17,583 bases of DNA from a virus. Lineage: Duplodnaviria; Heunggongvirae; Uroviricota; Caudoviricetes. The stretch is taken from IMG/VR virus record IMGVR_UViG_2609459845_000009; one strand, written 5' to 3'. Under the pieces are notes generated by a model. That model saw only the letters and a program-made list of their open reading frames with translations. It searched no databases and was not told where the DNA came from. Positions 1,831 through 13,523 of this stretch are shown here, in pieces. Made by a program: the position numbers and the translations under genes. The first letter of the stretch is position 1, and every line of letters starts with the position of its first letter.

Positions 1831-3117
1831 GTGAAAAATAATTCCGCGCTGTTTGTTGGTTCTTTTTTTGAAAGTGACCAAAGCTCAAAAGTAAACCTGG
1901 CATTATCTTATGATGGAGAACGATTCGAAAAAATAAAGGCTCAATTCCTTTGGGCTATTGGTGGAACTGGAGAAGTTTTAGGGAGAGACCCATCAATTAT
2001 TTATCACAACGGTTGGTGGTTAATAGCCGTATCAGGATATACAGAAAACGTTTATGACGTCGATTGCTGGCGCTCACGTGATTTAACCGTGTGGGAACTG
2101 GTACGAATTAAGCTTGGCGATACGCCAGTCTGTGGGAAACGATTACCGGGTTCAGATCTGGTGACCACTGACGTGTGGGCTCCTGAATGGTTTGTTGATG
2201 ACGAAAATCTGTTCCTGATAGTCAGCCTGCGTTATTACAACGATCAGACTGACAGTAAAGGTGTAAATGTCAAAAGTTTTAAAACATTCTATTCTGTCTG
2301 TTCTGATGTTGAGAGACTGGAGTTTTACGATCCGGTTGCGGTAAATATCGAACCAAAAAACATGATTGATTCTGTTTTTTCCAGAATATTCCAGACGTAT
2401 TACCTGACAATAAAAGATGAAATCACCAAAAAAATTGAGGTGTATTGTTCAAATTGTTTCTCAGGACAGTTCACGAAATTATCAGTAATTCCGTTTACTC
2501 AGGCGGCGGAAGGCCCGGCGCTGGTTTATTTGCCGGACGGCACGATCAGAATCTATGCGGATTTTTTCGACACAAAAAAATGGACTTATTTTGTAGACAC
2601 GAAAGACTTCGTGACGTTCACGCCAGAGCGCCCCGTTTTGTTTGACGGCAGAATTAAGCGCGGGACTATTACAAATGTGCTGAACTGGCGCGATAGTGAA
2701 ACCGCATTGCAGCAACTGTCGGCGCTGTTCTGTGCAAACTCCGGGGATTTACAGCCAGGGAAAATCCACAAGCTCATTGATGTAGCGGGAACGAGCAATA
2801 TCAACGCTACTGATTTAATCTGGTGGCCTGAAACTGGACATTGTTATTTCACCGAGGGGTTATCCGGTAACGTGACAATCAATGCGCTGCCAACTGTTTA
2901 CCCGGACGGGAGTTCGTTTTATCTGATGGTCCGAAGCGCAACGCCGGGAGCTGGTGATCTGACGCTTAAACAGGCTGTCGGCGACCTGTACCACCCGGCT
3001 AATGGCATGGCGATATTTGATGCTGATTTGGTAGTGGCGGCTGGCGGGAACGCCGCATCACGTCTGTTTAGAATGGTGTGCTTTGATGGCCAGTTGTGGG
3101 TTGAGGGGGTTTTCTGA
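1831..3117 (+). CDS. Hypothetical 428-aa protein; N-terminal part resembles a GH43-type five-bladed beta-propeller glycoside hydrolase, C-terminal about 140 aa unassigned
   Basis: Long ORF in an AT-rich island; GTG start (first in-frame ATG is far inside). Motifs in GH43-like order: RDPSIIYHNGWWLIAVSGY, DVWAPEW, AEGPALVYLPDG. No signal peptide. Assignment is motif-level only. Confidence 0.5.
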   Translation: MKNNSALFVGSFFESDQSSKVNLALSYDGERFEKIKAQFLWAIGGTGEVLGRDPSIIYHNGWWLIAVSGYTENVYDVDCWRSRDLTVWELVRIKLGDTPVCGKRLPGSDLVTTDVWAPEWFVDDENLFLIVSLRYYNDQTDSKGVNVKSFKTFYSVCSDVERLEFYDPVAVNIEPKNMIDSVFSRIFQTYYLTIKDEITKKIEVYCSNCFSGQFTKLSVIPFTQAAEGPALVYLPDGTIRIYADFFDTKKWTYFVDTKDFVTFTPERPVLFDGRIKRGTITNVLNWRDSETALQQLSALFCANSGDLQPGKIHKLIDVAGTSNINATDLIWWPETGHCYFTEGLSGNVTINALPTVYPDGSSFYLMVRSATPGAGDLTLKQAVGDLYHPANGMAIFDADLVVAAGGNAASRLFRMVCFDGQLWVEGVF

Positions 3118-3151
3118 TATAATTGTGGCTCAATGAAAATTGGGCCACATA

Positions 3152-4213
3152 ATGAACAATAAAATATTTTCCGTCCAGTATCTTCGTGGAATAGCAGCGC
3201 TACTTGTGGTGCTGTACCATTTTTCTTTTTTTACTCCGCGCTGGTTTGCTAATTTATTTGCAAATGGCATGGTGGGCGTTGATATTTTTTTCATTATCTC
3301 TGGATTTATTATTTATTGGTCAACAATAAATCCTGAGGAATGCAGACCAACGGTATTTATTGTTAAACGATTCGCCAGAATATACCCGCTATTTTTTGTT
3401 GTGTTACTGGTTTCGTTGTTATTGCAACCTGCGCCTGCCACACAATTATCCAGGGGTTTTCTGGTTCTGCACAACGATTACACACTACCCGCTCCGGCGT
3501 TTGGATTTAATCTGCTACCGCCCGCGTGGACATTGACTTATGAAATATCGTTCTACGCTATTTTCTGTATGTGCGCTGCAATAACGACCCGGTATCGAGG
3601 TTCATTGTGTATCGCGCTGCTGATTGCAATCCCGGCAGTGCTACAGGTTGCGTTTAATGGAGGGTTGTCGTTTAACAGCACAGTCACCGCTATCCCTCCT
3701 GCTGACTCGCCGTTTTATGGTCTAATCAGGCTGGCAGGCTCAACGATGTTTTATGAGTTTGCGTTTGGGATTATGTCTGGAATGATATTTGAAAGGTTTA
3801 AATTAATTCTTCCTAACTTAACTGCTATTACTATAGCAATATTCGCATCGGCTTTATTTTTCTATTTTTTCTTCACATTCTCAGACCATACCAGCGGTAT
3901 AGAAGGAATGTTCTTTTTTGCTGCAATATTTTTTGTGGGCGTTTTGATGCTGGATAAATCAAAGGCGGGAGAGATAAAAGCATTATCAATTCTTGGCGAC
4001 CTGACATATAGCATTTATCTCTGTCATTGGCTGGTAATGCAGATGGTACAGAAATTTATTCCGATTGGGGAGTATAAGCACTGGGGCGTCCTTGTCCCCT
4101 GCATGCTTGTTGCTTCTCTGATGATGGCATTCGCAGCTAACCGGATAATTGAAAAACCGTTTATCCGTCTGGCCCGTTCGGCGCTGAAACGCCAGGAGAT
4201 TACGACGCGGTAG
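3152..4213 (+). CDS. Acyltransferase family 3 integral membrane protein (OafA/Oac-like O-acetyltransferase)
   Basis: N-terminus MNNKIFSVQYLRGIAALLVVLYHF is the acyltransferase-3 signature; many hydrophobic segments; 34 nt downstream of the 428-aa gene, same strand. ATG 3152 preferred over the track's TTG at 3140. Confidence 0.8.
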   Translation: MNNKIFSVQYLRGIAALLVVLYHFSFFTPRWFANLFANGMVGVDIFFIISGFIIYWSTINPEECRPTVFIVKRFARIYPLFFVVLLVSLLLQPAPATQLSRGFLVLHNDYTLPAPAFGFNLLPPAWTLTYEISFYAIFCMCAAITTRYRGSLCIALLIAIPAVLQVAFNGGLSFNSTVTAIPPADSPFYGLIRLAGSTMFYEFAFGIMSGMIFERFKLILPNLTAITIAIFASALFFYFFFTFSDHTSGIEGMFFFAAIFFVGVLMLDKSKAGEIKALSILGDLTYSIYLCHWLVMQMVQKFIPIGEYKHWGVLVPCMLVASLMMAFAANRIIEKPFIRLARSALKRQEITTR

Positions 4214-4664
4214 CAGGACGTGGCGGCCATTCAAGGCTGTCACTTAATATCGCTGCTTCATCATTAAACTTCATTTTCTTCAAGGCATCGATATGAGCAA
4301 GCCACTCTTTAAAGGTCGCCTTCTCTTCATCGGTGATGATCTCCAGAATGAGCTTAGAAGGCCAGTGTTCGCTGCTTATATATGCGTTAGCCGCAGAGAT
4401 TAACGCATCTCTCTTTGACTCGGCCTGTGCCAGTTTAAGCGCGAACAGTTCTTCTTTAGTTGGCTCGGGAATTTTTTCCCACGCAGGCATGCCGTCTGGC
4501 CCTGCAACCCTTCGCATGCCGTCTTTAACTGTTGGGTAAAATTCGGCGAAAACACCCATATCAACCGGCACAGCATCACTGTATTCGTCCGTCTTTAACA
4601 GAGAGCTTTCCTTGAAAACAAAAGCGTTGCTTTTGGCACTATATAAAAAATCTGAATCAGACAT
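4200..4664 (-). CDS. tfa: Tail fibre assembly protein (Tfa family)
   Basis: 154 aa; position directly downstream of a tail-fibre C-terminal fragment with TAATG stop/start overlap; C-terminal region (DEEKATFKEWLAHIDALKKM...DSLEWPPRP) resembles Tfa chaperones from memory. Confidence 0.7.
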   Translation of the reverse strand: MSDSDFLYSAKSNAFVFKESSLLKTDEYSDAVPVDMGVFAEFYPTVKDGMRRVAGPDGMPAWEKIPEPTKEELFALKLAQAESKRDALISAANAYISSEHWPSKLILEIITDEEKATFKEWLAHIDALKKMKFNDEAAILSDSLEWPPRPATAS

Positions 4665-5099
4665 TACGCTCTCCCGATAGCAATCCAGTTAAAAACTGTT
4701 GGCTGCGCAGTAAAGTTGTGGTCGGACGAACTCCAGGTTGCAGAACGAACATTAAAGCTCCCTGCGTTAACCTTTTCGGCACCATACACGGTTAAGAGTT
4801 GATAGATACCGCCGGAGGCTGTCCATCCAGAGACATGGCCTTCTACTGCAAATACCTGGTATGAGCTCATCGCCACACCCATATTCACATTATAAAATCC
4901 GTTACTGTCCGTTGTACCTACATCCATCTGGATGATCATATTGCCAGGAAGGCGAATAACCACACCAGACCCGGTTGTTGTATAGGTAAAGGATGACATA
5001 TCCGGAACTTGCCCGGTAGCCGGTATAAATCACACACTCTCCGACATACACATCATCCGGATGGGCAAACAGCTCTTGTTTGTCTGTGAGCTCTGCCAT
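4664..5099 (-). pseudogene. stf: Side tail fibre C-terminal remnant, truncated at 5' end and split by a frameshift (65-aa + 111-aa ORFs)
   Basis: Two overlapping minus-strand ORFs in different frames (5099-4902 and 4999-4664), ending at the tfa start; no upstream tail-fibre body or any other structural genes. Confidence 0.5.
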
Positions 5100-5456: not shown

Positions 5457-5978
5457 TCAGCACGCGATATCGAGAGTCAACTGCAGTTGCTCGCGCCAGT
5501 ACTCAACATTTGCTTCAATAACCGGCTTATCCCATCGCCAGCGAGCCATCTCTCTTGCCCCATTGCTGGCTTTTGATTTCCGGTCATCGCGAATGCGACA
5601 TGCTTGCTCATATTTCTGCTGCTCAGTCAGTTCACCGCGAAGCAGACTATCAATGTGCAGGTCGCACCACACAGCAAAACGAGCATCACACCAACGGGCA
5701 AATGCAACTGAAAGTTTTGGATGTAGCCACGTACCACCACCCCTGTCCTTTCGTGCCTTGCTGGTTTTTACATACCTCGATTGTGAGGGATGTAAAATTT
5801 GAGATTCTTTCCCGGTCAACGCTTCGTCTAAAGCACGAACGTATTCAAGCGTTTCTGCCAAACGCATCCAGTTATCAATGCGTTTTCCAAATCTCTCAGC
5901 AACACCTGTGACGTTGATCCAACCATCAGTGTTGAAACTGACAATTTCACCTTTGTAATTAAGTGGCACGATATTCAT
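5457..5978 (-). CDS. KilA-N domain protein
   Basis: 173 aa; DGWINVTGVAERFGKRIDNWMRL and GTWLHPKLSVAFARWCDARFAVWCD match the KilA-N (APSES-like) domain pattern. Confidence 0.6.
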   Translation of the reverse strand: MNIVPLNYKGEIVSFNTDGWINVTGVAERFGKRIDNWMRLAETLEYVRALDEALTGKESQILHPSQSRYVKTSKARKDRGGGTWLHPKLSVAFARWCDARFAVWCDLHIDSLLRGELTEQQKYEQACRIRDDRKSKASNGAREMARWRWDKPVIEANVEYWREQLQLTLDIAC

Positions 5979-6179: not shown

Positions 6180-6638
6180 TTATTTCAGGCATTGCGTCCT
6201 GATGTATTCCTGCAGGTAGTTAACCTGCGCGGTTATCTTGTCGATTCCACTTCGGAGACGGTAATAATTGAGTTCAGCATCTGCTGTAAGTCTTGGGCTT
6301 TCTCCATCGCCCATGCTGCTGGCTCCGGTCGTTGACTTTGCACAGGTGGCGGCGACTTGCAGGCGCTTACGACCAGCAGAAACATCAGCACGGAGACTTT
6401 CGATAGTCGCGTTAGCATCAGCAAGCTCCTTTGTATATCTGGCATCGAGTTCTGCTACATCACGTTGACGCTTCCGCATGTCAGCGATGGTGGCGTTCGC
6501 CTTCTCCAGTTCACTGGCCTTGTTATCGCGCTGCTCTTTGTAGGCGATTGCGTTATCACGGTAATGATTGACCGCCCACGACAGGCAGACGATGATGCAG
6601 ATAACCAGAGCGGAGATAATCGCGGTTAACCGACTCAT
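6180..6638 (-). CDS. Rz: Spanin inner-membrane subunit Rz (lambda Rz-like)
   Basis: [34 protein letters not shown]... closely resembles lambda Rz; internal ATG at 6638 chosen over the ORF-track start at 6767. Confidence 0.9.
6233..6418 (-). CDS. Rz1: Spanin outer-membrane lipoprotein subunit Rz1, embedded in Rz in the +1 frame
   Basis: Embedded ORF with lipobox LLVVSAC followed by a proline-rich stretch [12 protein letters not shown]; start at 6418 or 6385 is uncertain. Confidence 0.7.
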
Positions 6639-6726
6639 GACATCAACACCCCAACGGCCAGAAACCACGGCCACGCATCGTTGCCATTCAATGCGAGCAA
6701 CGCTGCCATGAAAAAGCAAATCATGC

Positions 6727-7230
6727 TCATTGTTGCCCCCACAAACAGACTTCACGCTCAATCTCACGACGGGTCATCAGCCCTTTCCATTGCTTACCGC
6801 CAGCGTATGTCCAGCGCCGTAGCTGATCACATGCGCCCTTGATATCGCCCTGGTTTATTTTGCGAAGAAGCGTCGATGTTCTGAAATTGCCTGTGCCCAC
6901 GTTATAGACGAACGAGTAAAGAGCGCCGCGCGTTGTTTCCGGTATATCGACTTTGATGTACGGGTTAATTTGTCTGGCGACCGTGGCAAGGTCTTTATTC
7001 AGGAGGGCTTTGCATTCTGCTTCGGTATACGTTTTACCGAGCATGATGTCTTTTCCGGTGTGTCCGTGGCATACAGTCCATACACCAACAATATCTTTGT
7101 ATGGTATGTAGCTGACACCTTCCAGACCATCGTTACCACTCGGTCCAGTGATTAACACAGATGCTATAGCAATAGCCCCGCCACTTATCGCCGCTATTAC
7201 GCTATTTCGTAGTGCCGGTGACATTGCCAT
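6727..7230 (-). CDS. R: SAR endolysin (phage lysozyme, T4-lysozyme/GH24 type; P21 R / RrrD-like)
   Basis: N-terminal Gly/Ala-rich weakly hydrophobic segment [16 protein letters not shown] (signal-anchor-release type) followed by [25 protein letters not shown] catalytic region. Confidence 0.9.
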
Positions 7231-7462
7231 TCAATCTGTCCTCGCGCTCTTTGCGCTTGTAGTACCAGTTGATGCCAAATGTGCCGACAGTACAAAGAAT
7301 ACCAATGATGACAGCCCAGTCATTCAGGGAGAGAATGCCACCCATCGCAGTCAGTCCTCCGAAGCTGTAACTGAACCATTCTCTGATTTTGTCCATAGCG
7401 CACGTTAATACCCGCTCGACGCTTTCTTTCAGGTATTGAAGGGATTGAGATGGGCTAAGCAT
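7202..7462 (-). CDS. S: Holin (probably pinholin partner of the SAR endolysin)
   Basis: 86-aa ORF with hydrophobic segments and a charged C-terminus ([10 protein letters not shown]); strong AGGAGG Shine-Dalgarno 6 nt before ATG 7462; overlaps the lysozyme start. Internal start at Met23 (7396) is possible. Confidence 0.7.
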
Positions 7463-7796
7463 TATTGGCCTCCTGCATCAGGAGAAAGACAATCATGGCG
7501 GCGCGGAGAGGTCTGGTATCAAATATTGGGCTTACGCCTTTTGCATCCACACACCATTCAGTTAACTGGTCTAAGATAGAAATCCTGTATTTCTCAATAA
7601 TCGGCCATGAAGCGCTCGGATCATTGCAGTAGTCAGGCAAATGATTTAATGGCTCAAAAGTTGTATAAGCATTTCCGTAATACCATTTGTTGGTGTTATT
7701 CCCTGATGTTTCCGGTTTACTTGCCCAAAGGCCTTTAAAAATTATGTCTCCTACCATTCTGTTAATTTCAAAATCACTTAACTGTGAATAATCCAT
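7455..7796 (-). CDS. Hypothetical protein immediately upstream of and overlapping the holin gene
   Basis: ORF with GAGG Shine-Dalgarno 8 nt before ATG 7796 (track start 7838 is GTG and would overlap ninE); no recognisable Q-antiterminator features. Confidence 0.45.
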
Positions 7797-7822
7797 TGTC
7801 ATTTCCTCGCACGATATCTTAG

Positions 7823-7975
7823 CTACCGGATATCCCACAGGTGAGCTGTGTAATTGAAGATTTTTACGTCAGATTCTTTTGGGATTGGCTTGCGTTTATT
7901 TCTGGAGCGTTTCGTTGGAAGGTATTTGCAGTTTTCGCAGATGATGTCGGTGAAACTTCGTCGCTGTCGCCTCAT
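7823..7975 (-). CDS. ninE: NinE
   Basis: [50 protein letters not shown] resembles lambda NinE; ATGA overlap with the upstream Dam reading frame. Confidence 0.75.
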
Positions 7976-8500
7976 GCCGCCCTCCTGACGCCCTGCCCGA
8001 TCGCCATCAATGCCGCTTTGGATACGGTAGTAAACATCCGTCGAGGACTGATGAACGGTCGCCAAATCAGCAGCATGGAGCCTTTGCTGTTTCCCTTCTT
8101 CTCCAGCCCTGTCGATGGTTCGATAAAATTAATCCGTCCATCAGTGATAATGCGAACTTCGTCGACACTCTCCAGAGCCTTGCTGAACCATCCGACTGAC
8201 ATATCCTCTGGCACAAGCATAACTACCGTCTGTCGCTGTTGTATGCACTGCTCAGCGGCTTTTTCCACCCACGGCCTGATATTGCTGTACGGTGGGTTAT
8301 TCCAGATTGCACCGTGGCTTATCCACTCAGAATTTAGCGCGTCGTCGGCCTCAGTTAACCAGTGAGCGCACAGAGCATTTTTTGTCGCTCGCTGCCGAAT
8401 CCAGCCAGAATCCAAACTCAATATCCAGTGCATCAAAAAGCCAAAGCGGCGTTTGCCAGCAGTCCTTGTCGTGTGCTGGCGTATTTGATTTGATAGTCAT
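7972..8500 (-). pseudogene. Phage-type DNA N6-adenine methyltransferase (Dam) interrupted by a frameshift in an A6 run
   Basis: N-terminal frame (8500-8351) has MTIKSNTPAHDKDCWQTPLWLFDALDIEFGFWLDSAASD; C-terminal frame (to 7972) has NALCAHWLTEADD...NNPPYS (motif IV). The frames meet at T6 on plus strand 8378-8383; removing one A restores a continuous protein. Confidence 0.7.
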
Positions 8501-8937
8501 GCAGCCCGATCTCCCCATCGCGCTTTCCATTCGAGAGCCAGTCGCGCTTCGTCTGACCACTTAACGCCACGCTCTGTACCGAATGCCTGTATAAGCTCTA
8601 ATAGCTCCGCAAATTCGTTTACACGCATCCTGCTGGTTGACTGGCCTATTACCACAAAGCCATTCCCGGCAAGGTTAGGAACAACATCCTGCTGCTTTAA
8701 TGCTGCGGTAAACACACACTTCCAGCTTTCTGCATCCAGCCAGCGACCATGCCATTCAACCTGACGAGAGACGTCACCAAGGCAAGCCCAAAGCTTTCGA
8801 TTCTGGTCTAAGCTGCGGTTGCGTTCCTGAATGGTTACTACGATTGGTTTGGTTGGGTCTGGAAGAATTTGCTGTACCGCGTGAATAGCGTTTTGCTGAT
8901 GTGCTGGAGATCGAATTTCAAAGGTTAGTTTTTTCAT
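8497..8937 (-). CDS. ninB: NinB (Orf-family recombination protein)
   Basis: MKKLTFEIRSPAHQQNAIHAVQQILPDPTKPIVVTIQERNRSLDQNRKLWACLGDVSRQVEWHGRWLD... matches lambda NinB from memory; ATG at 8937. Confidence 0.9.
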   Translation of the reverse strand: MKKLTFEIRSPAHQQNAIHAVQQILPDPTKPIVVTIQERNRSLDQNRKLWACLGDVSRQVEWHGRWLDAESWKCVFTAALKQQDVVPNLAGNGFVVIGQSTSRMRVNEFAELLELIQAFGTERGVKWSDEARLALEWKARWGDRAA

Positions 8938-8953
8938 GACTTCCCTCTCCCCC

Positions 8954-8985
8954 AAATAAAAAGGCCTGCGATTACCAGCAGGCCT
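8954..8985 (-). terminator. Intrinsic terminator between ren and ninB (tR2 position)
   Basis: Minus-strand hairpin AGGCCUGC-UGGUAAUC-GCAGGCCU (plus 8962-8985) followed by UUUUUAUUU. Confidence 0.6.
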
Positions 8986-9010
8986 GTTATTAGCTCAGTG
9001 ATGTAGATGG

Positions 9011-11300: not shown

Positions 11301-11332
11301 GCCCTTTTTCAGGGCTGGGATGTGTAAGAGCG
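11301..11332 (-). promoter_or_regulatory. nutR (boxA CGCTCTTACACA, boxB GCCCTGAAAAAGGGC)
   Basis: Reverse complement of 11301-11332 gives the boxA and boxB hairpin between cro and cII. Confidence 0.75.
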
Positions 11333-11340
11333 GGAATGTC

Positions 11341-12696
<1,356 letters not shown>

Positions 12697-12746
12697 TCCC
12701 CACCTCAATCTCGATAACCAAAAAACAAACTATTTTCCGTTTAAAA

Positions 12747-12815
12747 ACAATGGAGTTTGTTTTTCATGCCCCTTTCTTACAATATTTCTTGTTTACAACA
12801 TACAATCTTTTTTGT
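12747..12815. promoter_or_regulatory. 434-type left operator OL sites with pL
   Basis: ACAA-N6-TTGT 14-mers at 12747-12760 (ACAATGGAGTTTGT), 12779-12792 (ACAATATTTCTTGT) and 12802-12815 (ACAATCTTTTTTGT), upstream of nutL and N. Confidence 0.75.
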
Positions 12816-12860
12816 AATTTTAAACCATCAGCAGGACGCACTGACCACCATTGAAGGTGA

Positions 12861-12891
12861 TGCTCTTAAAAATTAAGCCCTGAAGAAGGGC
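12861..12891 (+). promoter_or_regulatory. nutL (boxA TGCTCTTAA, boxB GCCCTGAAGAAGGGC)
   Basis: Read directly at 12861-12869 and 12877-12891. Confidence 0.8.
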
Positions 12892-13049
12892 AGCATTCAA
12901 AGCAGAAGGCTTTGGGGTGTGTGATACGAAACGAAGCATTGGCCGGAAGTGCGAATCCGGATTAGCTGCAAATGAGCCAATCGTGGGGTGTTTTCGTTCA
13001 GGACTACGACTCACACACACCACCAAAGCTAACTGACAAGAGAATCCAG

Positions 13050-13373
13050 ATGGATGCACAAACACGCCGCCGCGAACGTCGCGCAGAGAAACAGGCTCAA
13101 TGGAAAGCAGCAAATCCCCTGTTGGTTGGGGTAAGCGCAAAACCAGTTAACCGCCCTATTCTCTCGCTGAATCGCAAACCGAAATCACGAGTAGAAAGCG
13201 CACTGAATCCGATAGACCTTACGGTGCTGGCTGAATACCACGAACAGATTGAAAGCAACCTGCAACGTATTGAGCGCAAGAATCTTCGAGTTTGGTATAG
13301 CAAGCCAAGTGAGTTCGGTATAACTTGTCAAGGAAGACAAAAGGTTAAAGGGAAATCCATTCCATTGGCATGA
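13050..13373 (+). CDS. N: Antiterminator N
   Basis: MDAQTRRRERRAEKQAQWKAANPLLVGVSAKPVNRPILSLNRKPKSRVESALNPIDLTVLAEYHEQIESNLQRIERKN... matches lambda N, including the arginine-rich boxB-binding motif; ATG 13050. Confidence 0.95.
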   Translation: MDAQTRRRERRAEKQAQWKAANPLLVGVSAKPVNRPILSLNRKPKSRVESALNPIDLTVLAEYHEQIESNLQRIERKNLRVWYSKPSEFGITCQGRQKVKGKSIPLA

Positions 13374-13523
13374 GGTACGTAATGAAGAAAATTGATTACA
13401 AGTCCATACCAAAACCAATAGACTCAGCATCAGAGCGAAAAAAAACACAAAAAAGAGGCTGAAAAATTAGCAAATTATATCAGTTTTATTAGAAACAATG
13501 CTCACGGCGATGGCGACAGGAAG

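Follow-up and report, generated by a model that had tools for sequence, protein, structure and literature searches.

How the lysis genes of a lambdoid prophage can be transcribed when the nin region runs straight into them, with neither a Q antiterminator nor a late promoter in between, is the question raised by the IMG/VR record IMGVR_UViG_2609459845_000009, a stretch of 17,583 nt (hereafter, the window) with its lysis and nin genes on the minus strand in the order ninE, ninX (113 aa), an 86-aa ninF'::holin open reading frame (ORF), SAR endolysin, a small ORF and Rz/Rz1. A preliminary description of the locus left two options: either Q had been deleted, or lysis was wired to the early operon independently of Q. 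The locus is very probably a defective lambdoid prophage that combines 434-type immunity with the N/nut system of lambda and bears the scar of a deletion; the arrangement is prophage decay of the ordinary kind, confined to one clonal lineage, rather than a new lysis wiring. Head and tail genes are all absent from the prophage, and each ORF from ren to the endolysin is explained by Pfam matches (Table 1).

Table 1. Coordinates of the features of the prophage, in window positions
Feature	Position	Strand	Description
N antiterminator	13053..13376	plus	107 aa from MDAQTRRRERR; PF11438 N36, E=3e-26; listed ORF begins 12972
nutL boxB	12877-12891	plus	exact lambda boxB
pR-like promoter	11584..11612	minus	upstream of 434-type cro; TTGACA-17-GAAAAT, 10/12 consensus matches
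nutR	11301..11332 (boxB 11301-11315)	minus	boxA-like CGCTCTTA and exact lambda boxB GCCCTGAAAAAGGGC
tR2-type intrinsic terminator	8962..8985	minus	between ren and ninB; AGGCCTGCTGGTAATCGCAGGCCT then TTTTATTT
ninB	8497..8937	minus	intact; PF05772, E=1.3e-54
dam pseudogene	7972..8500	minus	phage N6-adenine methyltransferase; +1 A insertion at 8383
ninE	7823..7975	minus	premature stop; PF05322 profile positions 1-50 of 58
ninX	7455..7796	minus	113 aa; ATG 7796, stop 7457-7455; PF10765 Phage_P22_NinX
ninF 5' remnant	7397..7462	minus	codons 1-22; AGGAGG ribosome-binding site; overlaps the ninX stop by the native 8 nt
Deletion junction	7396..7397	minus	TA common to both parental sequences; three-way alignment
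Class II (HP1-family) holin part	7202..7396	minus	64 aa from MDKIREW; PF16080
SAR endolysin (R21/RrrD type)	6727..7230	minus	intact; PF00959
Rz i-spanin	6180..6638	minus	152 aa; PF03245, E=1.4e-40
Rz1 o-spanin	ORF 6233-6445	minus	embedded in Rz; lipobox LVVSAC
Second breakpoint	5090..5091		end of the phage homology, downstream of KilA-N (5457-5978)

The interval missing between ninF and the holin

The ORF that follows ninE after 26 nt and overlaps the ATG of the holin-containing ORF had been described as unknown, and the overlapped start had been assigned to the holin; the arrangement is as described, whereas the ORF proves to be ninX and the start to be the native ATG of ninF. Specifically, the 113-aa protein matches the NinX profile at 64.2 bits against a Pfam cutoff of 22.6 (E=1.7e-17; residues 4-110 on profile positions 1-114), its DNA is 98-99% identical to annotated NinX/DUF2591 genes of many phages, and it lies between ninE and ninF with the order and overlap seen in ev099, phage Oslo, E. 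coli NT1F25 and E. coli 222. The overlap between the end of ninX and the ATG at 7462 measures 8 nt (ATGCTTAG), the same as the ninX/ninF overlap of phage Oslo. In gene order and in this overlap the region is identical to the P22-type nin region (ninB-ninE-ninX-ninF-ninG-...-gene 23/Q) of Oslo and other P22-like or lambda-like phages; it differs in ending at ninF codon 22 and in carrying dam and ninE as pseudogenes. NCBIfam assigned no family to NinX, the chimeric ORF or N, and Pfam was used instead.

The lack of Q and of a late promoter, in turn, was borne out by the Pfam, tblastn and promoter searches. The profile search suggested for recognizing the 113-aa protein as a divergent Q returned solely NinX and no Q family, and tblastn with the QuuD-type Q of ev099 and the P22/55989-type Q found no Q homologue in the window (best E=1.3). 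No pR'/pause-site/tR' arrangement follows the 113-aa ORF, the stop of which overlaps the next start without any intergenic space, and a consensus scan of the minus strand from 7200 to 9000 (tR2 to holin) detected no sigma-70-like promoter, a scan that a weak or non-sigma-70 site in dam, ninE or ninX would escape.

The 86-aa ORF (7462-7202) is an in-frame chimera, in which ninF codons 1-22 are followed by a class II holin that starts at its second Met (7396). The ninX-ninF homology to E. coli prophages extends to 7396, while the holin homology, mapped independently of the three-way alignment, begins at 7397 and gives the same limits, with a breakpoint microhomology of 2 nt (TA). Full-length NinF comprises about 56-58 aa with a Cys-rich C-terminal part, of which 22 codons are left at the point where the relatives read on as NCGQKLH...CC.... 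Likewise, the native dual start of the holin (MYRM) and its own ribosome-binding site are missing, and its first three codons and their upstream sequence are replaced by ninF. The alignments show a single illegitimate recombination, in which the second Met codon of a dual-start class II holin came to follow directly on ninF codon 22. Lost with it were the remainder of ninF, the distal nin genes, Q and the pR'/qut/tR' region, together with the holin's first start and its ribosome-binding site.

The relatives carry in the missing interval ninF, ninG or rusA, ninH or ylcG, Q, and then a porin gene, tRNAs or a non-coding spacer. In detail, the interval holds ninF, rusA, ylcG, Q, porin and holin in ev099, ninF ... 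ninH, Q and holin in E. coli 55989, and ninF, ninG, ninY, ninH, ninZ, Q, two tRNAs and holin in phage Oslo; Q is also present in the corresponding interval of E. coli NT1F25 and strain 222. The proposal that Q was deleted is thus supported and maps to a single deletion with ninF codon 23 and holin codon 3 as its ends, across a segment that has Q in every relative examined. The size of the deletion, measured between matching points in the relatives, is a range of 2.3-3.0 kb. ev099 and NT1F25 were rejected as parents, since their holin is phage-21-type and they define the left flank alone. None of the records compared proved to have both exact flanks, although both gene types, the ninX/ninF side and the holin, are present in phage Oslo.

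Transcription of the lysis genes

The prophage retains a lambda-type N system, with an arginine-rich N-terminal peptide and boxB in both nutL and nutR. The two boxB sites have no mismatches, and two matches occurred in none of 200 shuffled sequences. Moreover, O and P are intact, and the pR-like promoter is the only candidate upstream of the lysis genes on the minus strand; pR transcripts must cross tR2 to get to the nin and lysis genes. Since N, nutL, nutR, pR and tR2 are intact and the lysis genes apparently lack a dedicated promoter, their expression would need N-dependent read-through from pR, a requirement that fits the sequence. The lysis genes would be silent in the lysogen; after repressor cleavage, N-modified RNA polymerase from pR would proceed through tR1 and tR2, reach them, and make them behave as delayed-early genes.

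Among the alternatives, the one that survives best, unlikely as it is, holds that the cassette is functionally dead, either because pR read-through is too weak or because the prophage is non-inducible, and that it awaits further decay. It is favored by the absence of a dedicated promoter in the scan, by the intact tR2 upstream, by the upstream nonsense mutation and frameshift, which would add Rho-dependent polarity for N-unmodified polymerase, and by the heavy deletion of the prophage. Conversely, N and nut are intact by sequence, and in lambda N-modified polymerase passes intrinsic and Rho-dependent terminators for many kilobases, to be compared with the roughly 4.1 kb that separate the cassette from pR; lambda Q mutants, moreover, keep a low, N-dependent expression of late genes.

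The search of the literature on Q-independent late expression and on Q-less cryptic prophages retrieved nothing directly relevant. A close comparison is offered by the nin5 mutation of lambda and similar spontaneous deletions in the nin region. nin5, a deletion of about 2.8 kb, removes tR2 and the nin ORFs, keeps Q and pR', and renders growth N-independent. Both nin5 and the present lesion are non-homologous deletions in the P-to-Q interval that alter which antiterminator the late functions need. In contrast to nin5, the present deletion lies further right, keeps tR2 and ninB to ninX, loses Q and pR', cuts the holin, and would leave the lysis genes Q-independent and N-dependent.

The chimeric holin and its partners

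The holin part scores 74.2 bits against PF16080 (Pfam cutoff 28.8) and, from 7397 onward, is 100% identical to the holins of E. coli 55989 and phage Emek. The native holin, exemplified by E. coli 55989, is MYRMDKIREW..., 67 aa. The 86-aa chimera is the sole long form among the 40 members read of a 219-member cluster; the 14 other members listed are all 66-67 aa, and of the 13 others aligned, 12 have 67 aa with the MYR start and 12 retain the second Met.

The chimera is predicted to be translated from the strong Shine-Dalgarno sequence of ninF, coupled to ninX, with a predicted pairing energy of dG -10.3 at the ATG at 7462 against -4.2, badly spaced, at Met23. Because Met23 is without a properly spaced Shine-Dalgarno sequence, the 64-aa holin proper is probably hardly produced. 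The hydropathy of the chimera (Kyte-Doolittle) shows two segments, TMD1 at about 1.1 and TMD2 at about 2.3, followed by a KRKEREDR tail; TMD1 is weakly hydrophobic and rich in Gly, Ser and Thr, and the 22-residue extension is hydrophilic, with two positive and two negative charges and a net charge of zero.

These features invite a comparison with the phage 21 pinholin S21 68 and antiholin S21 71, which share the two-TMD class II organization, an M-x-x-M dual start (MYRM in the native holin, MKSM in the phage-21-type holin of ev099), a weakly hydrophobic TMD1 and an R21-type SAR endolysin as partner. N-terminal extensions or added charges make the phage 21 holin an inhibitor, and S21 68 with two positive charges added at its N-terminus becomes a lysis antagonist (PMC9025707). 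By analogy, the 22-residue extension probably holds the weakly hydrophobic TMD1 in the membrane, and the chimera would act like an antiholin or a crippled holin. The present case differs from S21 68 and the engineered irsS21 68 antagonist in its holin family, PF16080, and in its extension, a net-neutral NinF fragment of 22 residues made by a deletion; such a net-neutral extension might be tolerated by the holin. The kinship to the phage 21 pinholin is distant, with a PF04971 match below cutoff and a pairwise BLASTP E of 0.024, and the transfer of the TMD1-exit model is therefore uncertain.

The endolysin matches 4zpu (RrrD; E=8.5e-107) and 3hde (R21 of phage 21; E=6.2e-106) over residues 3-167, SAR segment included, and an E-8-D-5-T motif is readable in its sequence. 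The Rz/Rz1 region shares 93-98% identity with phage cassettes. A further suspected lesion, the 88 nt that separate the endolysin from Rz, was rejected, since functional phages conserve this allele, which codes for a 31-aa ORF. SAR endolysins are able to lyse cells without a holin (PMC9025707), and by analogy any lysis would be due chiefly to SAR endolysin that is released independently of the holin.

Distribution, decay and significance of the deletion

None of 5,426 complete E. coli genomes has the junction, and an exact 24-mer across it (TTAACGTGCGCTATGGACAAAATC) has no match in GTDB species representatives or in metagenome contigs. In IMG/VR the 24-mer occurs in one contig, UViG_2609459845_000023, which is identical to the window except for 1 base in 7,383, and the junction is also found in the Logan contig SRR1186762_466 (5 samples). 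Both contigs contain the dam and ninE point lesions as well; the carriers are all near-identical, with no conservation of the junction across diverged lineages.

The lesion is recent and clonal and belongs to a set of at least four: besides the ninF-holin deletion, the prophage has a frameshift in dam and a nonsense mutation in ninE and is devoid of morphogenesis genes. In dam, the extra base is apparent against ev099 and NT1F25, and PF05869 is matched by the distal frame alone. In ninE, a G>A change at 7824 (TGG>TAG) relative to two relatives leaves 50 aa instead of 58; ninE of the relatives ends 2 nt before ninX, and the 26-nt gap between ninE and ninX is due to this nonsense mutation. Beyond the second breakpoint lie the remnant of a tail fibre (4664-4999) and a gene for tail-fibre assembly (4200-4664; Caudo_TAP), where intact relatives go on into terminase genes past the corresponding point. 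The integrase at the left end was rejected as a fragmented gene, since it runs off the window.

Against this background, it is improbable that the cassette is a functional and selected Q-independent lysis module under N and pR, such that the tail-less prophage, on SOS induction, would kill and lyse its host, whether in altruistic suicide or to set the cell contents free. In favor of such a module, the cassette has kept its endolysin, Rz, Rz1 and holin core intact, at 93-100% identity to the genes of functional phages, the fusion is in frame and provided with a strong Shine-Dalgarno sequence, N, nut, pR, O and P are preserved, and lysis by SAR endolysins can dispense with a holin (PMC9025707). 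However, a junction confined to near-identical sequences and missing from the complete E. coli genomes gives no sign of long-term maintenance, dam and ninE decay beside the cassette, an in-frame junction is explained by a one-in-three chance, and the dual-start control region of the holin is destroyed. Equally doubtful is the more specific scenario in which the deletion would have made a working Q-independent, N-dependent and SOS-triggered lysis device, with the extended holin as a built-in antiholin next to the SAR endolysin and the spanins, that is expressed with delayed-early timing from the tail-less prophage and kept via kin benefit. The suggested Q-independent wiring of lysis holds true as a by-product of the deletion and is unsupported as an evolved arrangement, given the limited distribution of the junction, its decaying neighbours and the solitary long chimera.

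An assembly artefact, namely a chimeric join of two prophages in a draft assembly, is very improbable: several prophages per genome hold ninX and holin sequences able to confuse short-read assemblers, but the identical junction with both point lesions recurs in the Logan contig (5 samples) and in the IMG/VR contig, and a repeat-mediated misjoin requires shared sequence, of which the junction has 2 nt. Least credible, to a practically negligible chance, is that the 113-aa protein is a divergent Q with pR'/qut hidden upstream and a late switch present yet unrecognised, which has nothing in its favor except the position immediately upstream of the lysis genes and conflicts with the above-cutoff NinX match in the absence of Q-family matches, with the near-identical ninX of phages that encode a separate Q further downstream, and with the preceding 26 nt, which are the tail of ninE and in which no promoter-like site was found.

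Ordinary decay has parallels in the DLP12, Qin and Rac prophages of E. coli K-12, which have likewise lost morphogenesis genes by deletion and retained holin, endolysin and spanins; DLP12 is also akin in its endolysin, given the close match of the present one to the RrrD structure 4zpu. DLP12 and Qin retain a Q gene (quuD and quuQ, respectively) upstream of the lysis cassette, as in the quuD-essD-rrrD layout, whereas the present prophage has neither Q nor the late promoter, and its holin is chimeric.

The chimera offers a natural experiment on the N-terminal topology of holins, quickly testable in existing lysis assays. The main value of the analysis is a correction, in that an apparent alternative regulatory architecture becomes a mapped deletion in a decaying prophage. 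Automated annotation would label the chimera as a slightly long “holin” and overlook the missing Q and pR', a loss that is relevant when prophages are scored as intact or lysis-competent.

Organization of the region from pR to the lysis genes

All genes at issue lie on the minus strand in the ORF map of the window, and the succession of ninE, a 113-aa ORF, and a holin-containing ORF reported in the preliminary description is real according to this map and to Pfam. By sequence, the N/nut system is intact, as are the pR-like promoter and the tR2-type terminator, and the lysis cassette has neither a promoter nor an antiterminator of its own in the sequence scans.

Features of the early and lysis regions and of the flanking DNA, in window coordinates
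Feature	Position	Strand	Basis
pR-like promoter	11612-11584	-	Consensus scan
434-type cro	Between pR-like promoter and nutR	-	
nutR, exact lambda boxB	11315-11301	-	Motif search
cII, O, P, ren (in this order)	After nutR	-	
tR2-type terminator	8985-8962	-	Sequence scan
ninB	8937-8497	-	
Phage dam methyltransferase (frameshifted)	7972-8500, after ninB	-	Pfam
ninE	7975-7823	-	Pfam
ninX (113-aa ORF)	7796-7455	-	PF10765
Holin-containing ORF (86 aa)	7462-7202	-	PF16080
Endolysin	7230-6727	-	Pfam lysozyme
Rz with embedded Rz1	6638-6180	-	
KilA-N gene	5978-5457	-	
Tail-fibre-like C-terminal fragment (111 aa), beyond the end of homology	4664-4999		
Tail-fibre assembly gene (Caudo_TAP), beyond the end of homology	4200-4664		Pfam
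434-type cI		+	
nutL, exact boxB	12877-12891	+	Motif search
Lambda N gene		+	PF11438

The immunity region (11341-13376) is mosaic: its cI and cro are of the 434 type, and its N, nutL, and nutR are exact lambda versions. Directly downstream of cI, at the lambda rex position, a 158-aa ORF (12220-12696, +) with a signal-peptide-like N-terminus has no family in Pfam or NCBIfam; it is possibly an exclusion gene or a moron expressed in the lysogen.

The 113-aa ORF, first described as unknown, with a divergent Q named as a possible outcome, is NinX: the Pfam profile PF10765 matches over its full length (E=1.7e-17), and its DNA is 98-99% identical to NinX/DUF2591-annotated genes of many Escherichia and Salmonella phages. 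Because of this match, and because phages with this ninX carry a separate Q downstream of it (ev099, Oslo, NT1F25, and strain 222 were examined), the ORF is neither unknown nor a cryptic Q, and that candidate is rejected. The absence of Q itself is borne out: tblastn with two different Q types yields zero matches in the window, and Pfam accounts for every ORF from ren to the endolysin (NinB, Dam, NinE, NinX, holin, and lysozyme). Moreover, tblastn with the RusA, YlcG, NinH, and DUF1364 proteins of the relatives gives no matches in the window, and a consensus scan of the minus strand from tR2 to the holin detects no sigma-70-like promoter. The 26 nt between ninE and ninX, noticed earlier as an intergenic gap, exist because of a nonsense mutation in ninE (codon 51, TGG to TAG, by G>A at 7824 on the minus strand, compared with ev099 and NT1F25) that costs NinE its last 8 residues; in the relatives, ninE ends only 2 nt before ninX (ev099 annotation). 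Compared with the same two relatives, dam is frameshifted by an extra A (+1) at 8383 on the minus strand.

The ninF-holin junction and the missing interval

The ninX stop shares 8 nt (ATGCTTAG) with the ATG of the next ORF, which contains a holin domain (74 bits in Pfam). The overlap is thus as first described, but the start is not the holin's own: it is the native ninF ATG, overlapped by ninX in the same way in phage Oslo. With a 301-nt query across the region, the E. coli prophage ninX-ninF match stops at 7396, and none of 5,426 complete E. coli genomes covers the whole query; the holin-side query matches only from 7397 downward, its hits being holins of E. coli prophages and of P22-like and lambda-like phages at up to 100% identity. 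The native holin in E. coli 55989 is a 67-aa protein beginning MYRMDKIREW..., a length and MYR start shared by 12 of the 13 other members of the holin cluster alignment, in which the second Met is kept equally often (12/13). Residues 1-22 of the window protein are instead the NinF N-terminus (compared with NinF of E. coli 222), and in a three-way alignment the ninF parent matches through ...ACGTGCGCTA and the holin parent from TATGGAC..., only TA being common to both at the junction. Given these match limits, the NinF N-terminus, and the TA-only sharing, the 86-aa ORF is, by sequence comparison, an in-frame ninF'-'holin chimera from illegitimate recombination.

The exact 86-aa protein is also encoded on the Logan contig SRR1186762_466 (5 samples), which shares the junction and the two point lesions, that of dam included, and the junction 24-mer recurs in the IMG/VR contig UViG_2609459845_000023, which differs from the window by 1 base in 7,383. 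The junction is found in none of the GTDB species representatives, metagenome contigs, and 5,426 complete E. coli genomes searched, and among the 40 members read of the 219-member holin protein cluster, no long form other than the chimera occurs (14 others are listed at 66-67 aa). From the near-identical carriers, the absence elsewhere, and the lone long form, the junction is judged real, clonal, and recent. An assembly artefact is rejected, since the junction recurs in Logan and IMG/VR contigs and only TA is shared at the breakpoint.

In the relatives, the corresponding interval contains the remaining ninF, rusA, ylcG, Q, and a porin gene (ev099), a KilAC antirepressor, DUF1364, rusA, ninH, and Q (E. 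coli 55989), or ninG, ninY, ninH, ninZ, Q, and two tRNAs (phage Oslo; 2,283 bp by coordinates). E. coli NT1F25 and strain 222 have comparable gene sets there. Judged by these intervals, the loss amounts to about 2.3-3.0 kb. The proposal that Q was deleted therefore holds, with the breakpoints mapped to the base and Q present in the relatives' interval. The holin-side homology starts 1 nt ahead of the holin's second Met codon and, as no native holin upstream sequence is left, pR', qut, and tR' are necessarily lost. Also deleted are the ribosome-binding site and the stem-loop serving the holin's two starts: in E. coli 55989, a GC stem-loop (CCCCTCAATGAAGGGG) lies just upstream of the MYRM dual start (positions 4448-4504 of its locus L002, compared with 7397-7462 in the window), and it is entirely missing from the window. 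This native structure recalls lambda sdi, which sets the holin-to-antiholin ratio.

Predicted working of the lysis cassette

An AGGAGG lies 5 nt ahead of the chimera ATG (dG of predicted pairing, -10.3 kcal/mol), and pairing prediction finds no usable Shine-Dalgarno sequence for Met23. The endolysin is a close match to two solved structures, RrrD (4zpu, E=8.5e-107) and phage 21 R21 (3hde, E=6.2e-106), N-terminal SAR segment included. By hydropathy, TMD1 of the holin core is weakly hydrophobic, with a Gly/Ser/Thr-rich sequence, and TMD2 is strongly hydrophobic. As a pair, the lysis proteins are similar to the pinholin and SAR endolysin of phage 21.

Between the endolysin and Rz, a 31-aa hydrophobic ORF (6635-6730, -) fills the space from the stop of the former to the start of the latter, with an ATGA overlap at each end. 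Phages such as Emek, 2B8, and PS34 have this spacer with 95-98% conservation, annotated as "hypothetical" at most; the ORF is possibly a small membrane component, so far unrecognised, of lysis cassettes of this type.

In the lysogen, the lysis genes would be silent. Upon repressor cleavage, N-modified polymerase from pR would pass tR1 and tR2, and everything from ninB to Rz/Rz1, the chimera and the endolysin included, would be transcribed as delayed-early genes; the main product would probably be the 86-aa chimera. Phage 21 pinholin becomes an antagonist on small N-terminal additions of positive charge (PMC9025707) and, by analogy, the 22-residue hydrophilic extension (K12, E13, E16, R17) would hinder the exit of TMD1 from the membrane, an analogy weakened because the window holin is only distantly related to S21 (BLASTP E=0.024; PF04971 matched only below cutoff). 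Lysis, if any, would be slow and would proceed mainly via spontaneous release of the SAR endolysin, a type of enzyme that does not need a holin to lyse cells (PMC9025707). With weak read-through, the cassette could be completely silent.

State of the prophage

Past the KilA-N gene, phage DNA homology ends at 5091, and the tail-fibre-like fragment and the tail-fibre assembly gene beyond it have no DNA match in the phage collection. The packaging, head, and tail genes are all missing, and the intact relative NT1F25 continues into terminase genes; a second large deletion, at 5091, removed them. At the prophage end lie cargo-like genes for an acyltransferase of the Acyl_transf_3 family (3140-4213, +), for a 428-aa protein whose GH43/GH32-like matches are weak and below threshold (1831-3117, +), and for a protein resembling HumD/UmuD (1253-1651, -); a tyrosine integrase runs past the left end of the window and adjoins sbcB in E. 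coli relatives.

That selection has kept the lysis cassette as a suicide module is very improbable, since conservation of the arrangement does not extend past a single clone, decay affects the flanking genes, and the timing control of the holin is destroyed. The Q-independent wiring of lysis proposed earlier does arise, but as an accidental by-product of the deletion and not as a design, and the original observation as a whole is confirmed in part. The event is similar to lambda nin5 and other classical nin-region deletions, but is shifted to the right and removes Q and pR' rather than tR2; the overall defective state is similar to that of the K-12 prophages DLP12 and Qin, although both keep Q. 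The locus is a further case of a known type, the defective lambdoid prophage, here with its deletion mapped and its holin chimeric, and is of mild interest because a class II holin of the dual-start kind carries a natural extension at its N-terminus.
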